From the IMG/VR virus record IMGVR_UViG_3300036800_000175, positions 32,001-96,000 of that record: DNA of 64,000 nt; one strand, 5' to 3'. The notes below the pieces were generated by a model. The model made no database searches and was not told where the DNA came from. It saw nothing but the letters and a program-made list of their open reading frames with translations. Positions within the stretch are counted from its first letter, which is position 1; every line of letters begins with the position of its first letter. Shown one piece after another: positions 13,588 to 34,714 of the stretch. A program made the translations under genes and the position numbers. The stretch is from a virus.

Positions 13588-13670
13588 CGGTGGCCGGGGA
13601 CTACATGAGCCGGCGGCCTGACTGGCGTGACCGGCTCGACAGTCAACTCACAACGGGGGGAATCGCCGTC

Positions 13671-14039
13671 ATGAACATCATCCGCCGGGAACCGGCTCTG
13701 GTGTGGTCCGGGATGCTGTCCGCCGCCGCGGCGCTGGCCGTGTACTTCACGACCGGGCTGACCCAGGCGCAGCACGCGTCGATCGTCACCGTCGCGGTCG
13801 CGCTCGGCGCCGCGATCGTCGCGATCGACTCCCGGCCGGTGCAGGTACCCATCCTGACCGGGATCATCGGCACGATCCTGGCTGCGCTCGGCGCGTTCGG
13901 GTTGCACATGGACGCCCACATGCAGGCGGAGTTCCTCACCGGCATCGGGATCGTGCTCGGCCTGGTCCTGCGGCTGCACCAGACCCCCGTCACCCCACCG
14001 GCCGTCACCCCACCGGCGGCGGCGCACGCGGCCGGGTGA
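13671..14039 (+). CDS. Putative holin
   Basis: IRREPAL start, about 4 TM segments, near endolysin. Confidence 0.6.
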   Translation: MNIIRREPALVWSGMLSAAAALAVYFTTGLTQAQHASIVTVAVALGAAIVAIDSRPVQVPILTGIIGTILAALGAFGLHMDAHMQAEFLTGIGIVLGLVLRLHQTPVTPPAVTPPAAAHAAG

Positions 14040-14344
14040 CCGGCTGGCTGGGGCACTGGCTCGGCCTCGACAACGTCGCGGGCCAAATCTACGCCTGGTG
14101 GTCCGGCAGCGGGTCGGTGATCCTCCCGTGGATCCTGAACTCCCTCACGGTCGCGGCCCTGTTCTGGTGGCACCACCAGTGCCACGTCTCCGGGTGCTGG
14201 TGGTATGCCCGCCGCACCACGGCGGCCGGTGAACGCGCCTGCTGGCGCCACCATCCCCATCCGCGGCGGACCGCCGCGGATCTGCTCACCGCGCATCACG
14301 CCGCTATCCGCGCCGGCACCAACACGAACGGAGGCGCACCGTGA
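14036..14344 (+). CDS. Membrane protein with Cys/His motif (HQCHVSGCW..CWRHHP)
   Basis: GTGA overlaps on both ends. Confidence 0.6.
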   Translation: MTGWLGHWLGLDNVAGQIYAWWSGSGSVILPWILNSLTVAALFWWHHQCHVSGCWWYARRTTAAGERACWRHHPHPRRTAADLLTAHHAAIRAGTNTNGGAP

Positions 14345-15189
14345 CCCTTGCAGGTGTTGACGTGGCGGTCTACCAGGGGACACCCGGCAGCTGGCGGGCG
14401 GAGGCAGGCGCGATCGCGTGGGCCGGGGTGAAGATCAGCGAACTGTCATCCGCCGGGCCCTACATTTCCCCGGACGCCGCGGCGGACTGGGCGTATCTCA
14501 AGGCCCACGGCAAAGGCCGGGTCGGCTACCTGTTCGGTCACCCCGCCACCGGCCCGGCGGCGACGGTCAGCCTGTTCGCGGATGAGCTCGCCCGCCTCGG
14601 CCTGGACGACGGCGACGGCATCGCGCTGGACCTCGAGCAATCCGACGGGCTGCCGCCCGGCCATGTGGCCACCTGGGCGGGGCAGGTCATGGCACAGCTT
14701 GAGCATGTGCTGCACCGGACCCCGCTGCTGTACACCTTCCTCAGCTTCGCCCAGGGCGGGAACTGTGCCGGGCTCGGCCGGTACCCGCTGTGGATCGCGG
14801 ACCCGTCCAGCCCGGCCGGCCACCCGCGGGTACCGGGCCCGTGGTCGGGGTGGGCGATCCACCAGCATTCGATCACCGGCAGCATCGACCGGGACGTCGC
14901 CGCCTGGGCCACGATGGCCGCGATGCGCGGCGAGCTCGGGAAGAAAGGAACCGCCGTGGCAGGGCAGACGATCGACTGGAAGGCTGCGGGCAGCAGCAAG
15001 ACGCTCGCGGAGCTGGCCGCGGACCGGAAGGTGGGGCCGTCCACGATCCTGCGGCTGACAGCGCAGCACGGGGCGGGGGGGAAGTTCCCCGGCCCGGTCG
15101 CGGCGTGGCTGGACGCGGTATTCACTGGGACGACGGCACCGTCGGCGCCGATCCCCGCGGATGTGGTGCTGCGGGTGCCTGCCAGCTGA
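14341..15189 (+). CDS. Endolysin, GH25 muramidase
   Basis: GVDVxxYQG, ALDLE, YPLWIA, HQHS..DRD GH25 motifs; C-terminal possible cell-wall-binding segment. Confidence 0.85.
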   Translation: MTLAGVDVAVYQGTPGSWRAEAGAIAWAGVKISELSSAGPYISPDAAADWAYLKAHGKGRVGYLFGHPATGPAATVSLFADELARLGLDDGDGIALDLEQSDGLPPGHVATWAGQVMAQLEHVLHRTPLLYTFLSFAQGGNCAGLGRYPLWIADPSSPAGHPRVPGPWSGWAIHQHSITGSIDRDVAAWATMAAMRGELGKKGTAVAGQTIDWKAAGSSKTLAELAADRKVGPSTILRLTAQHGAGGKFPGPVAAWLDAVFTGTTAPSAPIPADVVLRVPAS

Positions 15190-15416: not shown

Positions 15417-15668
15417 ATGTCCGGGGAGATCGACCGTTGGAGCGAGACGCCCTACAAGGAGCAGCTCGCCGGGTTCATCCGCGCCCAGATCCAGGCCGGT
15501 GACCTGCAACCGGGCCAGCAACTCCCCAGCGAACAGCACCTCATGGCCACCTACCAGCTATCCCGGTCCACCGTCCGCGGTGCCCTTGAGCTACTCCGCG
15601 GCGGCGGATGGATCGAAACCCACCGTCGGCGCGGGTCACGCGTCAGCCAGAACCCGCCGCCCCGCTAG
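15417..15668 (+). CDS. GntR-family winged-HTH regulator (DNA-binding domain only)
   Basis: YxQLA..I..G.L.PG.QLPSE..L...Y.LSRSTVR.AL..L. Confidence 0.9.
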   Translation: MSGEIDRWSETPYKEQLAGFIRAQIQAGDLQPGQQLPSEQHLMATYQLSRSTVRGALELLRGGGWIETHRRRGSRVSQNPPPR

Positions 15669-15674
15669 CGGCCG

Positions 15675-15727
15675 CAAAAGCAAAGAGCCCCCGGCAGCGT
15701 TCGCGCTGCCGGGGGCTCCCCTTTTTG
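15675..15727. terminator. Bidirectional intrinsic terminator
   Basis: 15-bp stem GAGCCCCCGGCAGCG/CGCTGCCGGGGGCTC, TTCG loop, A-rich left flank and T-tract right flank, between convergent genes. Confidence 0.85.
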
Positions 15728-15739
15728 CATGTGCTGGGG

Positions 15740-15919
15740 TCAGCCGTGGAACATGTCCGGGGACGCCCCGTGGTACATGTCCGGGGACGCCGCCGCCACG
15801 ACCGGGGCGGAGTTCGCGGTGGCGACGATCGACGGGACCGCCACGGCGGCACCGGAACTGATGGTGCCGGCCACGATCATTGTGGCGGCGAACTTTCTCG
15901 GGATGCGGGTGATTCTCAT
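15740..15919 (-). CDS. Secreted pre-peptide, 59 aa, with tandem C-terminal octapeptides ASPDMYHG / ASPDMFHG (candidate signalling peptide)
   Basis: Hand translation MRITRIPRKFAATMIVAGTISSGAAVAVPSIVATANSAPVVAAASPDMYHGASPDMFHG; GGAAGGAA RBS; basic n-region, hydrophobic h-region, Ala-rich cleavage-like region; terminator directly downstream; below the 60-aa ORF-track cutoff. Confidence 0.8.
   Translation of the reverse strand: MRITRIPRKFAATMIVAGTISSGAAVAVPSIVATANSAPVVAAASPDMYHGASPDMFHG
15743..15790. repeat. 24-nt tandem repeat x2 encoding the octapeptides
   Basis: gccgtggaacatgtccggggacgc / cccgtggtacatgtccggggacgc. Confidence 0.9.
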
Positions 15920-15962
15920 CGGGCGGGTTTCCTTCCATCGGGGGGGCCTTCAACGTCGGGGA

Positions 15963-16343
15963 TCATGAGACGGGCCACTGCGGTTCCACCAGCGCAGCCA
16001 GCTGGGTGAGCCTGCTGCGGCCCATGAGCGACGGCAGCCCGGTGCCCTCAGCGCGGCATGAGTTGGTGGTGATCTGCCAGGTGCTGCCGAGGTACTCACC
16101 GTCGGCTTTGCTCACCGCGGCAACCCCCGCCTCAGGGGCCAGTTCCCGGGCGATGCTCAGCAGGTCAAGGCCCTTGTCGCGGTCACCGAAAATCAGGGTG
16201 AGGATGTCACCCTTGCCGTCGTTGAAATTGATCGCGGCCACATCAATAGGCCGCTCAGCGGTCTCCGACCACCACAGCGGGCAGACACGCGCCAGACGCG
16301 TAAGGGTGCGGTAGACGCTTGCGTCAGCGTCCTGAAAAAGCAT
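15963..16343 (-). CDS. Hypothetical protein with one TPR-like motif, upstream of the peptide gene
   Basis: GGGGAG RBS; KGDILTLIFGDRDKGLDLLSIARELAP fits TPR positions G8,L11,G15,small20,L24,A27,P32 with one insertion. Confidence 0.55.
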   Translation of the reverse strand: MLFQDADASVYRTLTRLARVCPLWWSETAERPIDVAAINFNDGKGDILTLIFGDRDKGLDLLSIARELAPEAGVAAVSKADGEYLGSTWQITTNSCRAEGTGLPSLMGRSRLTQLAALVEPQWPVS

Positions 16344-21334: not shown

Positions 21335-21760
21335 TCATCCCCCAGCGGGATCGCGCGGCGGGACGTCCACGTCCGCGTCAGCGGCCGCGGCCGTCAGCAG
21401 GCGCTCACCTGCGCCCGCTGCCCGTGCGTCCGCGCATAGGCGCACCCATTCGGCGGTGGCCGCTTCCGCGCGGTCCCGTGCGGCGGCGGCGGCCCGCGCT
21501 GTCGTGCCGAGCTCCCGGCGCCAGCGCCGCTCTAGGCGCTCATCCATGCGGGCGGGGGCCGGTGGGGGAGTGGGCGCGGGAACGGCCGCGAGCGGCGGCG
21601 CTGTAGCGGCTGCGGGCGCTGCGGGCTGATCTGGTGCGGTAGCAGGGGGGTGGCTGCCCGGCGCGGCAGGGGCCGCCTCAGCGCCGTCGCCCAGCTTGGC
21701 GGTGCCGATCTTCCCGAACGCTGCCTCTGCGGCCGCACCGGCGCGCTGGCGGGCCATCAC
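21335..21760 (-). CDS. Putative ParA partner (centromere-binding/ParG-like)
   Basis: Coupled downstream of parA; disordered N-terminus plus helical C-terminus. Confidence 0.5.
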   Translation of the reverse strand: MMARQRAGAAAEAAFGKIGTAKLGDGAEAAPAAPGSHPPATAPDQPAAPAAATAPPLAAVPAPTPPPAPARMDERLERRWRRELGTTARAAAAARDRAEAATAEWVRLCADARAAGAGERLLTAAAADADVDVPPRDPAGG

Positions 21761-22365
21761 GCGGCCGCCGCGTCGCTGGCCAGTTCCTCGAGCACGCCTG
21801 CGTACTCGCCCAGGTCGGCGGGCACCGTGCCGTAACCGAGGGGGTACCGCTCGAGGTTGTGCACCTCAGCGGCCATGACCTTGAGGTTGTGGTCGGTCAG
21901 CCACGCGCGGGCTAGCCGGCTGCTGCGGGTGCCGGCGCGGATCTTGACCAGCAGCACCTGGGGGTACACCGGGGACACGGCGTCGATCTCGGCGGCCAGG
22001 GCGAACGTGTCGGGCAGCTGCTCAAGTTCCATGGGGCTCGGGGCGACCGGGATGAGCAGCTCGTCGGTGATCATCAGTGCTTTGCGCAGCAACAGGTCGT
22101 CGTGGGGGCTGGTGTCGATGAGGATGTCATCGAAGTCGCCGGCGATGGCCTGGATGCTGCGGACCAGGTCGTCCCCGAACGCGAGCACGGTGACTGACCC
22201 GGGCCAGTCTGGGGCCAGGGCTTTCCATTTCAGGCAGGTTTTGTTGGTGGTGTCCTCATCCACGATGAGGACCCTCCGCCCTTGCCGGGCGAGGGCGAGC
22301 GCGAGGTACACGGTGGTCGTGGATTTCGCCACGCCACCTTTCAGATTGCCTATGGTTGCCTTCAT
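21757..22365 (-). CDS. parA: ParA partition ATPase (short type Ib)
   Basis: NLKGGVAKSTT deviant Walker A, RVLIVD, ILIDTSP, LLIPVAPS; true start MKAT at 22365, leaderless behind TACTTT. Confidence 0.9.
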   Translation of the reverse strand: MKATIGNLKGGVAKSTTTVYLALALARQGRRVLIVDEDTTNKTCLKWKALAPDWPGSVTVLAFGDDLVRSIQAIAGDFDDILIDTSPHDDLLLRKALMITDELLIPVAPSPMELEQLPDTFALAAEIDAVSPVYPQVLLVKIRAGTRSSRLARAWLTDHNLKVMAAEVHNLERYPLGYGTVPADLGEYAGVLEELASDAAAA

Positions 22366-22458
22366 GTGGGGTAAAGTACCGCGCCCAATCCTGCGGAGCG
22401 CGGACACGCCGGGCGACACACACGAAAAACGACCTAGCCCCATCGTAGAGTTCTGACT

Positions 22459-22764
22459 ATGGCCCCCCAGGCGCGCATGACGCTGCCGACCGCGCTGGTG
22501 CTCGCCCGGCTCGCGACGGCCGCGCCCGGCGAGCTGTACGGGCGGCAGATCATGACCATGACCGGGCTCCGCGGCGGCACCATTTACCCGCTGCTGGCCC
22601 GCCTCGAAAGCAGGGGCCTGGTCGAATCGCGGCGCGAGACAATCAACCCGGCGAGGGAAGGGCGGCCGCCGCGCCTGTTCTACCGGCTCACCGACGCCGG
22701 GAAGGCTGAGGCGCAGGCCCACGCCACCCGGTACAGCGCCACCTTCACCCCTGGGGAGGGATGA
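22459..22764 (+). CDS. PadR-family transcriptional regulator
   Basis: LYGxQI..GTIYPLLARLE..GRPPRxFYRLT. Confidence 0.9.
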   Translation: MAPQARMTLPTALVLARLATAAPGELYGRQIMTMTGLRGGTIYPLLARLESRGLVESRRETINPAREGRPPRLFYRLTDAGKAEAQAHATRYSATFTPGEG

Positions 22765-22767
22765 GTC

Positions 22768-23244
22768 TTGGATGCAGCAGCGATCGGTGAGGCAGCCGAC
22801 CAGGCGTTCCGGGCCGCGTTCAACGGCGACCGGGAAACAGTCGCGGACCGGCTGGGCGACATTGCGGAGCGCTGGGGACCGCCCGGGATCCACGCCGCGG
22901 TCATGGGCTGGTCCGCGATCACCCTCAAAGCCATGACCGGCGACGGGTTCAATGACCGGGCCGAGTTCTACGCCCTTGAGGTGACCGAGAACGCCACAGG
23001 CAAGACGACCAGCGTCGACCAGATGTACTCCGGGCCCGAACAGCAGGCGATCCAGATGGTCACCCTGTACGGCAACCGCGACGACGCCACCTCGATCGCG
23101 ATGATCAAAACGGCATGCGCGGGCCCGGACTATGGCGCGGGCCTGATGGTCGCATCGGTCACCCTCGCTGCGGAATCTGCCCGCAGCCACCTTGAGCAGC
23201 ACGCCGCGACCTGCCGCGGATGCAATAAGGATCACCCCGCATGA
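22768..23244 (+). CDS. Hypothetical protein
   Basis: ORF in operon. Confidence 0.55.
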   Translation: MDAAAIGEAADQAFRAAFNGDRETVADRLGDIAERWGPPGIHAAVMGWSAITLKAMTGDGFNDRAEFYALEVTENATGKTTSVDQMYSGPEQQAIQMVTLYGNRDDATSIAMIKTACAGPDYGAGLMVASVTLAAESARSHLEQHAATCRGCNKDHPA

Positions 23245-23492
23245 CTGACCGCGATCCGGTTCCGTACCAGGTGACCCGCGTGTGGACGGTCCTGGCCACC
23301 GACGGGCAAGACGCGTTGGACAAGGCCCGGCCGGGGGAGCATCACGACGTGGTCGTCCGACCGATGCCATGCGGTGACTGGCCGTTGCCGTGCACCCACA
23401 ACCCGCAGCACGTCCGCCCCGCCGGTGAGCGCGAGGCGCGGCGCGAGCAAATCCGGCGGGACTTCGCCCCACCGCGCGAGTCTCCGTCATGA
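23241..23492 (+). CDS. Hypothetical protein
   Basis: ATGA coupling. Confidence 0.5.
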   Translation: MTDRDPVPYQVTRVWTVLATDGQDALDKARPGEHHDVVVRPMPCGDWPLPCTHNPQHVRPAGEREARREQIRRDFAPPRESPS

Positions 23493-23656
23493 TCCACGTC
23501 ACCTACGACGGCGACACCTACTGGCTGCAATGCTTCGCGGACGACCCGGACGCTGAGCACGGCGAGATCATTCACCCGATAGACGCGGGTGACAGCTGGG
23601 ATGAGATGGCGGCGAAGGTGGCCGGGCACCGGGCCGAGCACGGGTGCCAATTGTGA
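23489..23656 (+). CDS. Small hypothetical protein (55 aa, absent from ORF track)
   Basis: MIHVTYDGDTYWLQC..HGCQL; coupled at both ends. Confidence 0.5.
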   Translation: MIHVTYDGDTYWLQCFADDPDAEHGEIIHPIDAGDSWDEMAAKVAGHRAEHGCQL

Positions 23657-32178: not shown

Positions 32179-32720
32179 CCTTCGAGCGGGACCGGGCGGA
32201 CCGGGATCCCTGCCCGGCGGGCCCGGTCAGCGCAGTACGTGGTGCCGTGTGATTCGTGCGGCCTGGGCTCGCCGCAGCGCCGGTCGGCGCACGGGCCGGT
32301 GAACGCGAGACACAGCACCGCGCCGGCTTTGACCATCGCCGCGCTGCGGATGAACCCGCCCTGCCGCGGGTAGCTGTGCCAGTCCGCCGGGTGCCGCTCC
32401 GGCTCAGGCCAGTCCAACTCAAAGGCGGCGACGTCCGCGAGCCAGTCCCCGCCAAGCAGCCGCTTCTGCTGCTCGAGCGGGAGTTTCTCGGCGTCGTACC
32501 ATTCGATCACCTTGCGGGGGTCGTCCGGGTCGCGCGGGTCGCACTGGCCATGCACCACCTGGACGGGCCGGCCGTACTGGGCGGCGACGGCGGCGAGCTC
32601 GCCGCGGACCACCTCATAGGGGCCGAAGTAGCGGGACGCGGTCACCAGCACCCGCACCGGCCCGGCCGGGAGGCCCGGCTCAAACAGCATCCCGCTGCCG
32701 GGCATCCGCACCGGCCTCAC
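32175..32720 (-). CDS. SLOG / DUF2493-family protein
   Basis: RVLVTASR..VVHG..GGDWLAD..ERHPADW..GFIRS..MV..LAF..SHGT. Confidence 0.8.
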   Translation of the reverse strand: MRPVRMPGSGMLFEPGLPAGPVRVLVTASRYFGPYEVVRGELAAVAAQYGRPVQVVHGQCDPRDPDDPRKVIEWYDAEKLPLEQQKRLLGGDWLADVAAFELDWPEPERHPADWHSYPRQGGFIRSAAMVKAGAVLCLAFTGPCADRRCGEPRPHESHGTTYCADRARRAGIPVRPVPLEG

Positions 32721-34423
32721 CGGGCAGCCGCCAGGAAGAACACGTCCGCAGCGCTGACCTCATCGCCGGTGACGTCGGCCAGGCCGTTGCTGCGGAGGGT
32801 GGACAGGTACGACCCGAAGGTGCCGCCGGTGCGCTCAAGCCCGGCCGCTTCCGCGAGCTGGTCACGCGTCAGCGCGGCCGGGTGGGCGGCCAGCAGCGCG
32901 TCCAGCATCAGGCGCGCTCCCGCTTTCAGCGGACCGCGCCACCTCTCGCGGACCTCATCTGCGGTCATCGGCGCCCCGGGTACGCCGGGTTCCGCGCCGG
33001 CGACGGCCAGGCCCTCATGGGTGATGGACACCACCCCCGCGGTTTCGCTGATCAGCCCTCCGGTGCGCAGCGCCGAGAAGTACGACCCGAAGGTCCCGCC
33101 GGTGCGTTTCATCCCGGCCAGCGCCGCCAGCTGCGCCCGGGACACGGTCAGCGGGTACTGGCGGGCGAGCACGCCCAGCATCCGCCGCGCGCCCGCTTTC
33201 AGGCCCGGCGGCCCGTCCGCCGCTGCCGACCGGGTGTACCTGCTGTCGCTCCGCAGCGCGCCGGCCGTGGCCACCGCCGGCGCGGCCTGGACGGCGGCGG
33301 GCCGGGCCGCGCGGGACAACGCCAATTCCAGGCCCGCAGCCGCGTCCCGCAACCCGGTGATGATCTGCTCAACCGCGGCGATCTCGCCGTGCTGCACGAC
33401 GGGCACCTCAACCTCACGGGCCGGCTGGGCCCGGACCGCGTTCAGTTCGGCGGACAGCCGGGCGATCTCACGGCGCAACTCCGGGTCGCCCGCCGCTGGT
33501 GACGACGGGGCGGGCGTCTCAGCGTCGGCCTGCGTGAGCAGCCCGGCCATCCGGGCCAGGTCGGCCGGGTCGACGCGGGCGAACTCGCGGGGCATGATCC
33601 GCCGCTCCCCCACCTTCGGCGTCGCGGACGAGTCGAACGTCCGCCGCTTGCGCACCTGGATCCGGGTGAGGATCTCAAGCCACCCCGGCGACCACACCCA
33701 CGCCGCGCCGACCGGCAGTTTCGGCAGGCTCGCTTTCAGCTCACGGGCCTGGTCAGGGTCGGCGTGCGCGCTGATCCAGTCGTCTATCGCCGCGATATCC
33801 AGCTTCCCGGTCAGCCGCATCGCGAACAGCACCTCACACTGTGACCGGATGTCCGCGTTCAGCACTGCGGGCCGCTGCGTGATGCTGGTGCAGCCCAGTC
33901 CCTTGACCCGGCCGCGGCGGACCACGTCGTTGTAGGCACCGACCAGGCGGGCGATCTCCCCCCGGGTGTGCTGCGGCGCGAACATGTCGGCCTCGTCCAC
34001 GAACAGGTGCAGCGGGTCGCGGTTGTGATCGAACAGCCACTCAAACAGGTCCATGACGAACCGGCGTTGCTGCGTCTTCGACATGGCTGACAGATCGAGG
34101 ATGACGGGGATCCGCTCAGCGATGATCAGCTGGGCGACCAGCGCGCCGGACTCCGGGGTCAGGGGCAGGTCGGCGTGGTCGCCGCCCAGGATCGTGACCG
34201 GGAGGCCGGGGCCGGTCCCGTCGGCGCTTGATCGCAGGCCCCACCACACGCCCAGCGGGTCGATGATGCATACCGGCAGGCCGGCTGTGATCATCTCTTC
34301 GGCCATGACCGACGCGGCATAGGTTTTGCCGACCCCGCGCTTCGCAAAGAACAGGAAGGTCTCTGTCACCGCGTCCAGGGGGAACGCCAGCGAATCGGAG
34401 ATCCGGAGTTCGGGCGTGCTCAT
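32717..34423 (-). CDS. HerA/DUF87-like P-loop ATPase with tandem C-terminal winged helices
   Basis: AKRGVGKTY Walker A, LFVDEAD Walker B, TQRPA; two GGTFGSY.S.LR..GL repeats. Confidence 0.8.
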   Translation of the reverse strand: MSTPELRISDSLAFPLDAVTETFLFFAKRGVGKTYAASVMAEEMITAGLPVCIIDPLGVWWGLRSSADGTGPGLPVTILGGDHADLPLTPESGALVAQLIIAERIPVILDLSAMSKTQQRRFVMDLFEWLFDHNRDPLHLFVDEADMFAPQHTRGEIARLVGAYNDVVRRGRVKGLGCTSITQRPAVLNADIRSQCEVLFAMRLTGKLDIAAIDDWISAHADPDQARELKASLPKLPVGAAWVWSPGWLEILTRIQVRKRRTFDSSATPKVGERRIMPREFARVDPADLARMAGLLTQADAETPAPSSPAAGDPELRREIARLSAELNAVRAQPAREVEVPVVQHGEIAAVEQIITGLRDAAAGLELALSRAARPAAVQAAPAVATAGALRSDSRYTRSAAADGPPGLKAGARRMLGVLARQYPLTVSRAQLAALAGMKRTGGTFGSYFSALRTGGLISETAGVVSITHEGLAVAGAEPGVPGAPMTADEVRERWRGPLKAGARLMLDALLAAHPAALTRDQLAEAAGLERTGGTFGSYLSTLRSNGLADVTGDEVSAADVFFLAAAR

Positions 34424-34714
34424 GATGGATGGTCGCTCTCTGGTGTCGCCGTTACGTCGCCCAGGTCTGGCAGCGGCTCGCCTCTCGATATCCTGCGCAG
34501 GCACCGCCGCCAACTGGAATGTGACATAGAGCCCTGTTCGGCATCCCTGAGCGCCATGAGGTGCTGGGCCATCTTCCGCCGCACATCCCGTTCAATGAGG
34601 GGCAACGCGACTTCGAGCGCCATCCTGACTTTGGCCTCTTCGGCGGCTGAGATCCATGCCCCCGAAGCCTCCAATGCCCTGAGGGATGCGCGTAGGACCC
34701 CGCGCGGGAGTTTG

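Follow-up and report, generated by a model that had tools for sequence, protein, structure and literature searches.

Peptide signalling with cytoplasmic tetratricopeptide repeat (TPR) receptors is regarded as a trait of Bacillota, and actinomycetes are thought to be users of small molecules. The closest described systems, Rap-Phr and AimR-AimP, belong to the RRNPP(A) group of Bacillota and their phages. They pair a receptor of 300-400 amino acids with a short pre-peptide that has an N-terminal export signal and a C-terminal active part. The mature unit is tandemly duplicated in the phage Phr propeptides Phr3T and Phr105 of Bacillus phages (PMC11343458). Here we describe a 59-residue pre-pro-peptide gene in a 64,000-nucleotide stretch of phage DNA (the window), which corresponds to bases 32001-96000 of the 109,876-bp IMG/VR virus record IMGVR_UViG_3300036800_000175 (GC 69.7%), and a family of bacterial pre-peptides to which it very probably belongs.

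The predicted layout of the present family resembles that of Rap-Phr and AimR-AimP. Short pre-peptides with a putative N-terminal export signal and C-terminal active part, hypervariable mature sequences on a fixed frame, tandem duplication and a phage-borne copy are common to both, and the bacterial relatives adjoin a cytoplasmic regulator with TPR and helix-turn-helix (HTH) domains. There are also clear differences. The bacterial partner is a STAND/LAL regulator of ~950 residues, the two genes are divergent rather than co-oriented, the phylum is Actinomycetota, and the system is here known from sequence alone. In contrast to AimR-AimP, the phage carries the peptide gene without a receptor, and an AimX-like output is not known. 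In the interpretation that we favour, the phage peptide is an orphan allele of a host pro-peptide signal and would act through the host LAL regulator; we put the probability of this full mechanism at roughly 0.4.

The gene is located on the minus strand at 15740-15919 (ATG at 15917-15919, stop codon at 15740-15742) and encodes the sequence MRITRIPRKFAATMIVAGTISSGAAVAVPSIVATANSAPVVAAASPDMYHGASPDMFHG. A Shine-Dalgarno-like GGAAGGAA is present on the same strand at 15929-15936, ~10-11 nt upstream of the start codon. Residues 1-35 (15815-15919, minus strand) are signal-peptide-like: the n/h/c layout of a Sec signal peptide is visible by eye, with MRITRIPRK as the n-region, a hydrophobic core and A-T-A before N36. 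The C-terminal part consists of two octapeptide units, ASPDMYHG (15767-15790, minus strand) and ASPDMFHG (15743-15766, minus strand), the latter forming the C-terminus of the protein. Tandem Repeats Finder reports them as a 24-bp unit repeated 2.0 times at 15744-15791 with 95% matches, the two copies differing at TAC/TTC and GGG/GGC. The terminator scan places a two-way intrinsic terminator at 15685-15718, a GC-rich hairpin of 15-18 bp with T-runs on either strand, which is common to the peptide gene and a convergent gene for a GntR-type HTH protein. Its RNA fold has a free energy of -50.8 kcal/mol (z -6.3), and 0 of 200 shuffled sequences were equally stable. An earlier sequence-only reading of the window had pointed out the open reading frame (ORF), the ribosome-binding site, the two near-identical octapeptides and the terminator, and all four are present as quoted. 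A look-up of sequencing runs for the gene listed no RNA run and a single DNA run, probably the source sample.

An ORF this short and alanine-rich could have arisen by chance, or the ORF on the opposite strand (15729-15968, plus strand) could be the real gene. The composition is unable to choose between the strands because the antisense ORF shares the wobble position, and the GC content at third codon positions (GC3) of 0.90 for the peptide ORF and 0.82 for the antisense ORF does not discriminate. Homology does. A hidden Markov model (HMM) built from bacterial members only and compared with 2022 six-frame ORFs of the phage gave a single match, the peptide ORF (E 1.6e-4), and the minus strand is therefore the coding one. 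In dozens of genomes the homologues agree in frame, start, length and C-terminal motif, and all have a strong GGAGG. The plus-strand ORF begins inside the terminator region and extends into the neighbouring gene for a 126-residue protein. We consider an artefact hardly credible, and it is very likely that the 59-residue ORF is a real gene and a member of a LAL-linked pre-peptide family.

A phmmer search against 1.84 billion representatives returned one true relative of the phage peptide, P0003 (E 6.5e-11); P0004 of the same search, which resembles eukaryotic repeat proteins, was discarded as spurious. The 90% cluster of P0003 comprises five alleles from JGI metagenomes. Frame, start and doubled C-terminal motif are preserved in all of them, and they end in ...NSAPVVSAASPxM[YF]HG[AG]SPxM[YF]HG, where x is S, G or N. 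A DNA pattern of the double motif located the gene on a 65.9-kb contig of an actinomycete metagenome-assembled genome (MAG; locus L008, genome G001). The phage peptide shares 61% identity with six alleles, whose common form is NSAPVV[AS]AASPxM[YF]HG[AG]SPxM[YF]HG, and the ASPxM[YF]HG unit is kept in P0003-P0008 and L008. That P0003-P0008 are taken to be bacterial rather than viral is due to their being nearly identical to the MAG copy. The same pattern also retrieved a more distant soil-metagenome set (L003, L005 and L006) ending in APQMYHG copies. Other matches of the pattern scans (L002, L004, L007, L009 and L010) are due to chance and lie in other frames or in molybdopterin oxidoreductases. 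A word-index protein search with the phage peptide returned nothing, and the first alignment-based metagenome scan gave no confirmed locus.

The family was detected only in a narrow group of genomes. Across 400 genomes sampled from the whole class the HMM gave no true hits, merely signal-peptide-like noise, and at the level of the order it gave 11 hits. With a rebuilt HMM, 72 of the 301 genomes sampled from one family proved to carry the gene, each as a single copy (tallies over these 301 genomes include the unpublished genome G812, no sequence of which was used). The LAL orthologues beside the peptide genes carry the NCBI name 'Streptosporangiaceae bacterium'. This peptide family of Streptosporangiaceae-like genomes is apparently undescribed so far.

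Family members are 50-65 residues long. A typical main-clade member reads MRIGRAIIIPAILALGVAGSxLxGSAMxAAAGHAPSxHVQ...P-x-x-x-[YF]-[HR]-G, followed directly by the stop codon. The C-terminal motif, P-x(2-3)-[YF]-[HR]-G with a small residue last, occurs in 1-4 tandem copies (SPDMYHG and SPDMFHG in the phage). It is found at the extreme C-terminus of all members, and the overall length and stop position are kept. Pairwise identity averages 0.60 in the first 24 residues, a basic/hydrophobic/small-residue N-terminus, and 0.30 in the last 7. The terminal heptapeptide is different in 34 of the 35 distinct peptides, with P at position -7 in 24, Y/F at -3 in 31 and H/R at -2 in 29 of these 35. The tail is thus hypervariable on fixed positions, and is therefore patterned and constrained rather than drifting. 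The phage units differ at the variable position only from SPSMFHG, SPGMFHG, SPNMFHG, SPSMYHG and SPNMYHG, the alleles known from bacteria of the nearest clade. The terminal unit has been multiplied in three separate sub-clades, and two copies are present both in the phage clade and in G669. Natural copy-number polymorphism can be seen between L003 (715-939) and L005 and L006 (3582-3785), where otherwise identical genes contain four and three APQMYHG copies, respectively.

The sequence-only reading had taken the product for a pro-peptide with a signal peptide and a functional C-terminal end. The conserved layout of the family is in line with this prediction, and the tandem units, to which the same reading attached meaning, are a conserved family feature of variable copy number. 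Its suggestion of a Met/His metal-binding peptide fares less well. The Met position is occupied by V, I, T, L or other residues in most members, and R, Y or E stands in place of the His in 14/35. A copper-binding site is argued against because neither residue is conserved across the family, which weakens this alternative.

Linkage of homologues to genes for TPR/HTH proteins had been set beforehand as a test of the peptide-signal idea. Such linkage is found in bacteria and is missing in the phage. In 41 of 43 bacterial loci the peptide gene is arranged head-to-head with the N-terminus of an LAL gene; as to the other two, L059 ends at the contig end and L051 shows no LAL N-terminus within 3.2 kb. 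Beside the phage peptide gene the divergent AAA_16-TPR-LuxR neighbour is absent, so that the phage copy is an orphan. The bacterial regulator has ~950 residues and consists of AAA_16, TPR_12/TPR_MalT and a C-terminal LuxR-type GerE HTH domain, with 64-84% identity between orthologues across genomes. Judged from this domain content, the partner is an LAL/MalT-type STAND regulator. The expectation of an RRNPP-like receptor thus holds for bacteria as far as a TPR/HTH partner is concerned, but not for the receptor family, which is STAND/LAL.

MalT-type sensors, whose AAA_16 - TPR_MalT/TPR_12 - GerE architecture the bacterial partner shares, bind a small ligand through the repeat domain. Where the ligands of LAL regulators are known, they are small molecules, such as maltotriose for MalT. 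To our knowledge, no LAL regulator has been reported to have a gene-encoded peptide as its ligand or to be obligately paired with the gene for a secreted pre-peptide, and a literature search found no description of the pre-peptide/LAL cassette.

The surroundings of the cassette vary. A gene for an anti-sigma-like HATPase_c_2 protein comes after the LAL gene, and the far flank of the peptide gene contains XRE/DUF5753 and DUF397 genes in the main clade, and an amidohydrolase and a GntR-FCD gene in the clade nearest to the phage. Because the flanking contexts are of two different kinds, the peptide-LAL pair persists through rearrangement of its surroundings. Among the 301 genomes, 66 contain both genes, 6 the peptide gene only, 5 the LAL gene only and 224 neither. 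This co-distribution is largely the inheritance of one clade; it therefore demonstrates a cassette and not an independent association. Altered cassettes occur as well. In genome G798 (L055/L080) the peptide ORF runs ~30 residues beyond the usual stop and the adjoining LAL ORF is shortened to 763 residues, due to either joint decay of both genes or an assembly error. In G001, the MAG nearest to the phage peptide, the LAL gene (L039:4528-7186) is split by a frameshift or an assembly error into overlapping ORFs of 651 and 319 residues, and was hence left out of the binding test. Comparison of the LAL protein with PADLOC defence families gave no match apart from the HTH domain.

A conserved N-terminal part followed by repeated, variable C-terminal units is also the layout of multi-core precursors of ribosomally synthesized and post-translationally modified peptides (RiPPs), an alternative that the sequence-only reading had raised. 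The N-terminal part would then be a leader, and the C-terminal cores would be modified by enzymes encoded elsewhere to give a natural product. The aromatic-His motif recalls cross-linked RiPPs, and PikD is an example of an LAL regulator of a biosynthetic cluster. LAL regulators often control such clusters (PMC5930380). However, the putative leader is built like a Sec signal, with charged, hydrophobic and small residues in turn, an uncommon layout among RiPP leaders, and no NCBIfam precursor family was matched. Tailoring genes (radical-SAM, P450, YcaO, lanthionine or other) were found neither near the phage gene nor in four bacterial loci of 15-16 kb (enzymes elsewhere in the genomes were not searched). 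The bacterial flanks contain anti-sigma-like HATPase, XRE/DUF5753, DUF397, amidohydrolase (in one clade only) and GntR genes instead, and a phage precursor without enzymes would yield no product by itself. With no modifying enzymes linked, the alternative is weakened and we regard it as improbable.

Control of the bacterial genes offers a further comparison. The peptide genes have a GC3 of 0.55-0.76 and a conserved strong GGAGG 5-7 nt 5' of the start codon, and they sit behind an AT-rich spacer of 300-400 bp, in the main clade with a conserved 5' leader. The spacer between the LAL and peptide genes (L006:3786-4088, L008:3400-3817 and equivalents in L025-L067) has 47-58% GC, the genomes themselves 65-73%. 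Main-clade spacers contain a conserved TAGATAATGG-like box and the conserved leader GGCTGCTGACCTCGGGAATCGCCATGGAGGAATC. The CCTC in the leader could pair with the GGAGG ribosome-binding site and so exert translational control. A TTA (Leu) codon is present in 11/35 distinct peptide genes, at codon 13 in L008 (3854-3856), L025, L027, L061, L052, L057 and L066, and elsewhere in L035, L053, L058 and L059. TTA codons are very rare in high-GC actinomycetes and are bldA-dependent in Streptomyces; their presence in peptide genes hints at developmental control.

In Streptomyces development, oligopeptide signalling was inferred from the BldK permease and an extracellular peptide 'factor', to which, as far as we know, no gene has been assigned. 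The present family resembles that factor in being a short peptide of actinomycetes that is presumed to be extracellular and imported, and in its developmental-type loci: the cassette has XRE/DUF5753 (WhiJ-like) and DUF397 genes at its side, and TTA codons occur in the peptide genes at the frequency given above. Unlike the Streptomyces factor, the family is found only in one Streptosporangiaceae-like clade, and a link between the two is speculative.

The host-type promoter and leader boxes were looked for in the phage and none was found. Since these boxes are missing and the GC3 of the phage gene is 0.90 as against 0.55-0.76 in bacteria, the phage copy is an old, phage-adapted acquisition and not a recent one. 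The best explanation is that the phage obtained the gene long ago from a Streptosporangiaceae-like host.

Two computational results concern contact between peptide and regulator. Complex prediction for the TPR region of one LAL regulator (residues 380-885) with its cognate pro-peptide (residues 25-54) gave interaction scores (ipSAE) of 0.67, 0.51 and 0.45, with a median of 0.51, while the best of 3 controls reached 0.01. The runs share at least 39% of contacts, and the partner has a predicted local distance difference test score (pLDDT) of at least 36. Among 80 solved complexes 58 attained the pass mark, as did 2 of 110 mismatched pairs; scores that passed at 0.60 or below came from 7 of the 80 solved complexes and from both of the mismatches that passed. 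The models thus give weak support to peptide binding by the LAL TPR domain. The second result is co-variation. In 18 cognate pairs, the distance between the last 7 peptide residues correlates with the distance between the LAL TPR parts after the ATPase (NOD) part is regressed out (partial r 0.43, p<0.001, permutation). For the 15 main-clade pairs, the TPR part gives a raw r of 0.27 and the ATPase part one of 0.00; the partial r is 0.37 (p=0.003). The two approaches agree in direction, weakly, and neither is a proof.

The phage itself does not encode a comparable regulator. No LAL homologue was found in it by tblastn, and neither TPR_12 nor GerE matched anywhere in the 109,876-bp record at E<=1, a record that CheckV rates as 100% complete. 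The gene for the 126-residue protein (15963-16343, minus strand), which is co-oriented with the peptide gene, lies 43 nt upstream of it and is probably co-transcribed with it, had been credited with a TPR-like motif in the sequence-only reading. Its product has no match in Pfam, NCBIfam, PHROG or PADLOC, and none in 5 host-like genomes. The single homologue cluster (P0002/P0009, 63-66% identity) comes from Logan assemblies. Structure prediction, which the same reading had proposed, gave a pLDDT of 0.39 in the ESM Atlas and of 35.6 with AlphaFold2, the latter model being unreliable and showing predicted beta-strands; ESM Atlas look-alikes of the peptide and of the 126-residue protein had sub-useful scores or belonged to no informative family. 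In view of the missing family match and the low-confidence model with predicted strands, the protein was rejected as a TPR receptor.

These results bear on the proposal of a phage-encoded arbitrium-like pair, in which the 126-residue protein or a GntR-type regulator would be the receptor and the circuit would set lysis/lysogeny or transfer. The arrangement of the genes is compatible with it, as the peptide gene is co-oriented with the gene for the 126-residue protein and convergent with a GntR-HTH gene (15417-15668, plus strand). The whole record contains four GntR-type matches, of which three exceed the Pfam cut-off, and a 581-residue protein (21757-23502, minus strand) has a C-terminal ParA-like partition domain (PHROG 164, 3.9e-28) that could suit plasmid-like carriage. 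However, the adjoining GntR protein of 83 residues is a winged-helix DNA-binding domain (Pfam GntR 5e-17) without a ligand domain, and in bacteria the constant partner is the LAL regulator, not a GntR protein or a homologue of the 126-residue protein. No tyrosine or large serine integrase (Phage_integrase or Recombinase domains) was found in the record, and control of lysis/lysogeny is thus unsupported. Because the phage has no LAL, TPR or LuxR gene and the 126-residue neighbour has no recognisable fold, a self-contained arbitrium/RRNPP circuit is not supported, and we judge it very improbable. The missing integrase and the ParA-like domain are compatible with plasmid-like carriage of the phage, which is possible. 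The matches of the 83-residue GntR protein in PHROG are of unknown function; we mention the gene as context only.

The family as a whole carries the hallmarks of pro-peptide signals: a putative export signal, a presumed active part at the free C-terminus, a fixed frame whose variable residues are nearly species-specific, tandemly duplicated units and a cytoplasmic TPR-HTH partner. Under the favoured interpretation of an orphan allele acting through the host LAL regulator, the steps that we infer, namely export, processing, uptake, LAL binding and any effect on host or phage, would be as follows. The pre-pro-peptide would be exported by the Sec pathway with removal of the signal peptide. Extracellular proteolysis would release the C-terminal units, two per phage precursor (SPDMYHG and SPDMFHG), and these short peptides, once inside the cell, would bind the host LAL regulator at its TPR sensor. 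The phage has no arbitrium-like circuit of its own, because it has a signal gene and no receptor; it may instead feed a host-type peptide allele into the host circuit as an agonist or a jammer. The source of the phage peptide would be infected cells or cells carrying the phage. In its strongest form, this would be a peptide pheromone of Streptosporangiaceae-like bacteria, a C-terminal heptapeptide peculiar to each species and cut from a Sec-exported pro-peptide, with a STAND/LAL receptor, and the 110-kb phage would have captured the pheromone gene alone, with two cores, to speak or jam the language of its host; we regard that form as rather doubtful.

The main rival explanation is that the LAL regulator switches on an exported or membrane-anchored peptide with a non-signalling extracellular job, for example in antimicrobial activity or competition, at the surface or cell wall, or in exclusion. 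The phage gene would then be a moron that modifies the physiology of the host or excludes other phages. Activator-type regulators and their targets classically share a divergent promoter region, and the signal-like region, which is better conserved than the tail, might suit a membrane anchor. The phage gene is last in a leftward unit, beside the lysis cassette and with its own terminator, a typical moron position, and the evidence for LAL binding is weak. On the other hand, a near species-specific heptapeptide on the fixed P...[YF][HR]G frame, with a free C-terminus and occasional tandem copies, is the signature of a ligand family, and the tail co-varies with the TPR part of the LAL regulator and not with the ATPase part. 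Immunity, transporter or target genes linked to the cassette were not found in the four 15-16-kb bacterial loci. We hold this rival to be somewhat unlikely.

Several points weigh against the orphan-allele interpretation. The linkage lies within one clade and may in part be inherited gene order, and it is equally explained if the LAL regulator only activates the peptide gene. The LAL regulators are 64-84% identical while nearly all peptide ends differ, a receptor divergence below that of typical pherotype systems. The complex score falls into a band that is more often wrong than right absent a strong prior. TPR domains bind extended peptides generically, and the score may reflect general memory. 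Partial Mantel tests over-reject on phylogenetically related sequences. In IMG/VR, back-translated patterns and the double-motif DNA pattern found no relative of the peptide or of the 126-residue protein, and no other viral contig with a family member was found. Peptide quorum sensing is not established in Actinobacteria, whose signals are typically small molecules according to an RRNPP survey (PMC10075063). The mechanism as a whole is put together from sequences and models.

The phage genes around the locus provide some context. At the end of the plus-strand structural module lie a holin gene (13590-14039) and a GH25 endolysin gene (14341-15189), followed by the convergent GntR gene and the peptide gene. 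No relative of the peptide-bearing region was found among GenBank phages. A DUF397-like protein of the phage (27111-27413, minus strand) is 54% identical to the DUF397 protein encoded beside the bacterial cassette of L006, and represents another small host-regulator-like gene on the phage. A 598-residue protein (32717-34513, minus strand) has a partial match to a PHROG of the terminase large subunit, covering residues 35-273 only. Its sole relative in GenBank phages (43% identity) is annotated as 'hera helicase', which makes the terminase assignment doubtful.

Overall, what the sequence-only reading observed is confirmed and its interpretation is partly supported, the idea of a peptide signal being strengthened by comparison. 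The interest has moved from an arbitrium system of the phage to an actinobacterial pre-peptide/LAL cassette and a phage with the peptide half only. If true, Actinomycetota would have their first peptide quorum-sensing system, such a system would for the first time have a STAND protein as its receptor, and the phage would carry the first viral pheromone without a receptor. Found in roughly one in four of the Streptosporangiaceae-like genomes sampled, the cassette would make peptide signalling testable in the phylum that makes most antibiotics, and would give LAL regulators, mostly ligand orphans, a candidate ligand class. If they work as proposed, the cassettes would be ready-made orthogonal pairs of peptide and regulator. 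The phage copy would add a new tactic of phage-host communication, in which a host signal gene is carried without its receptor.

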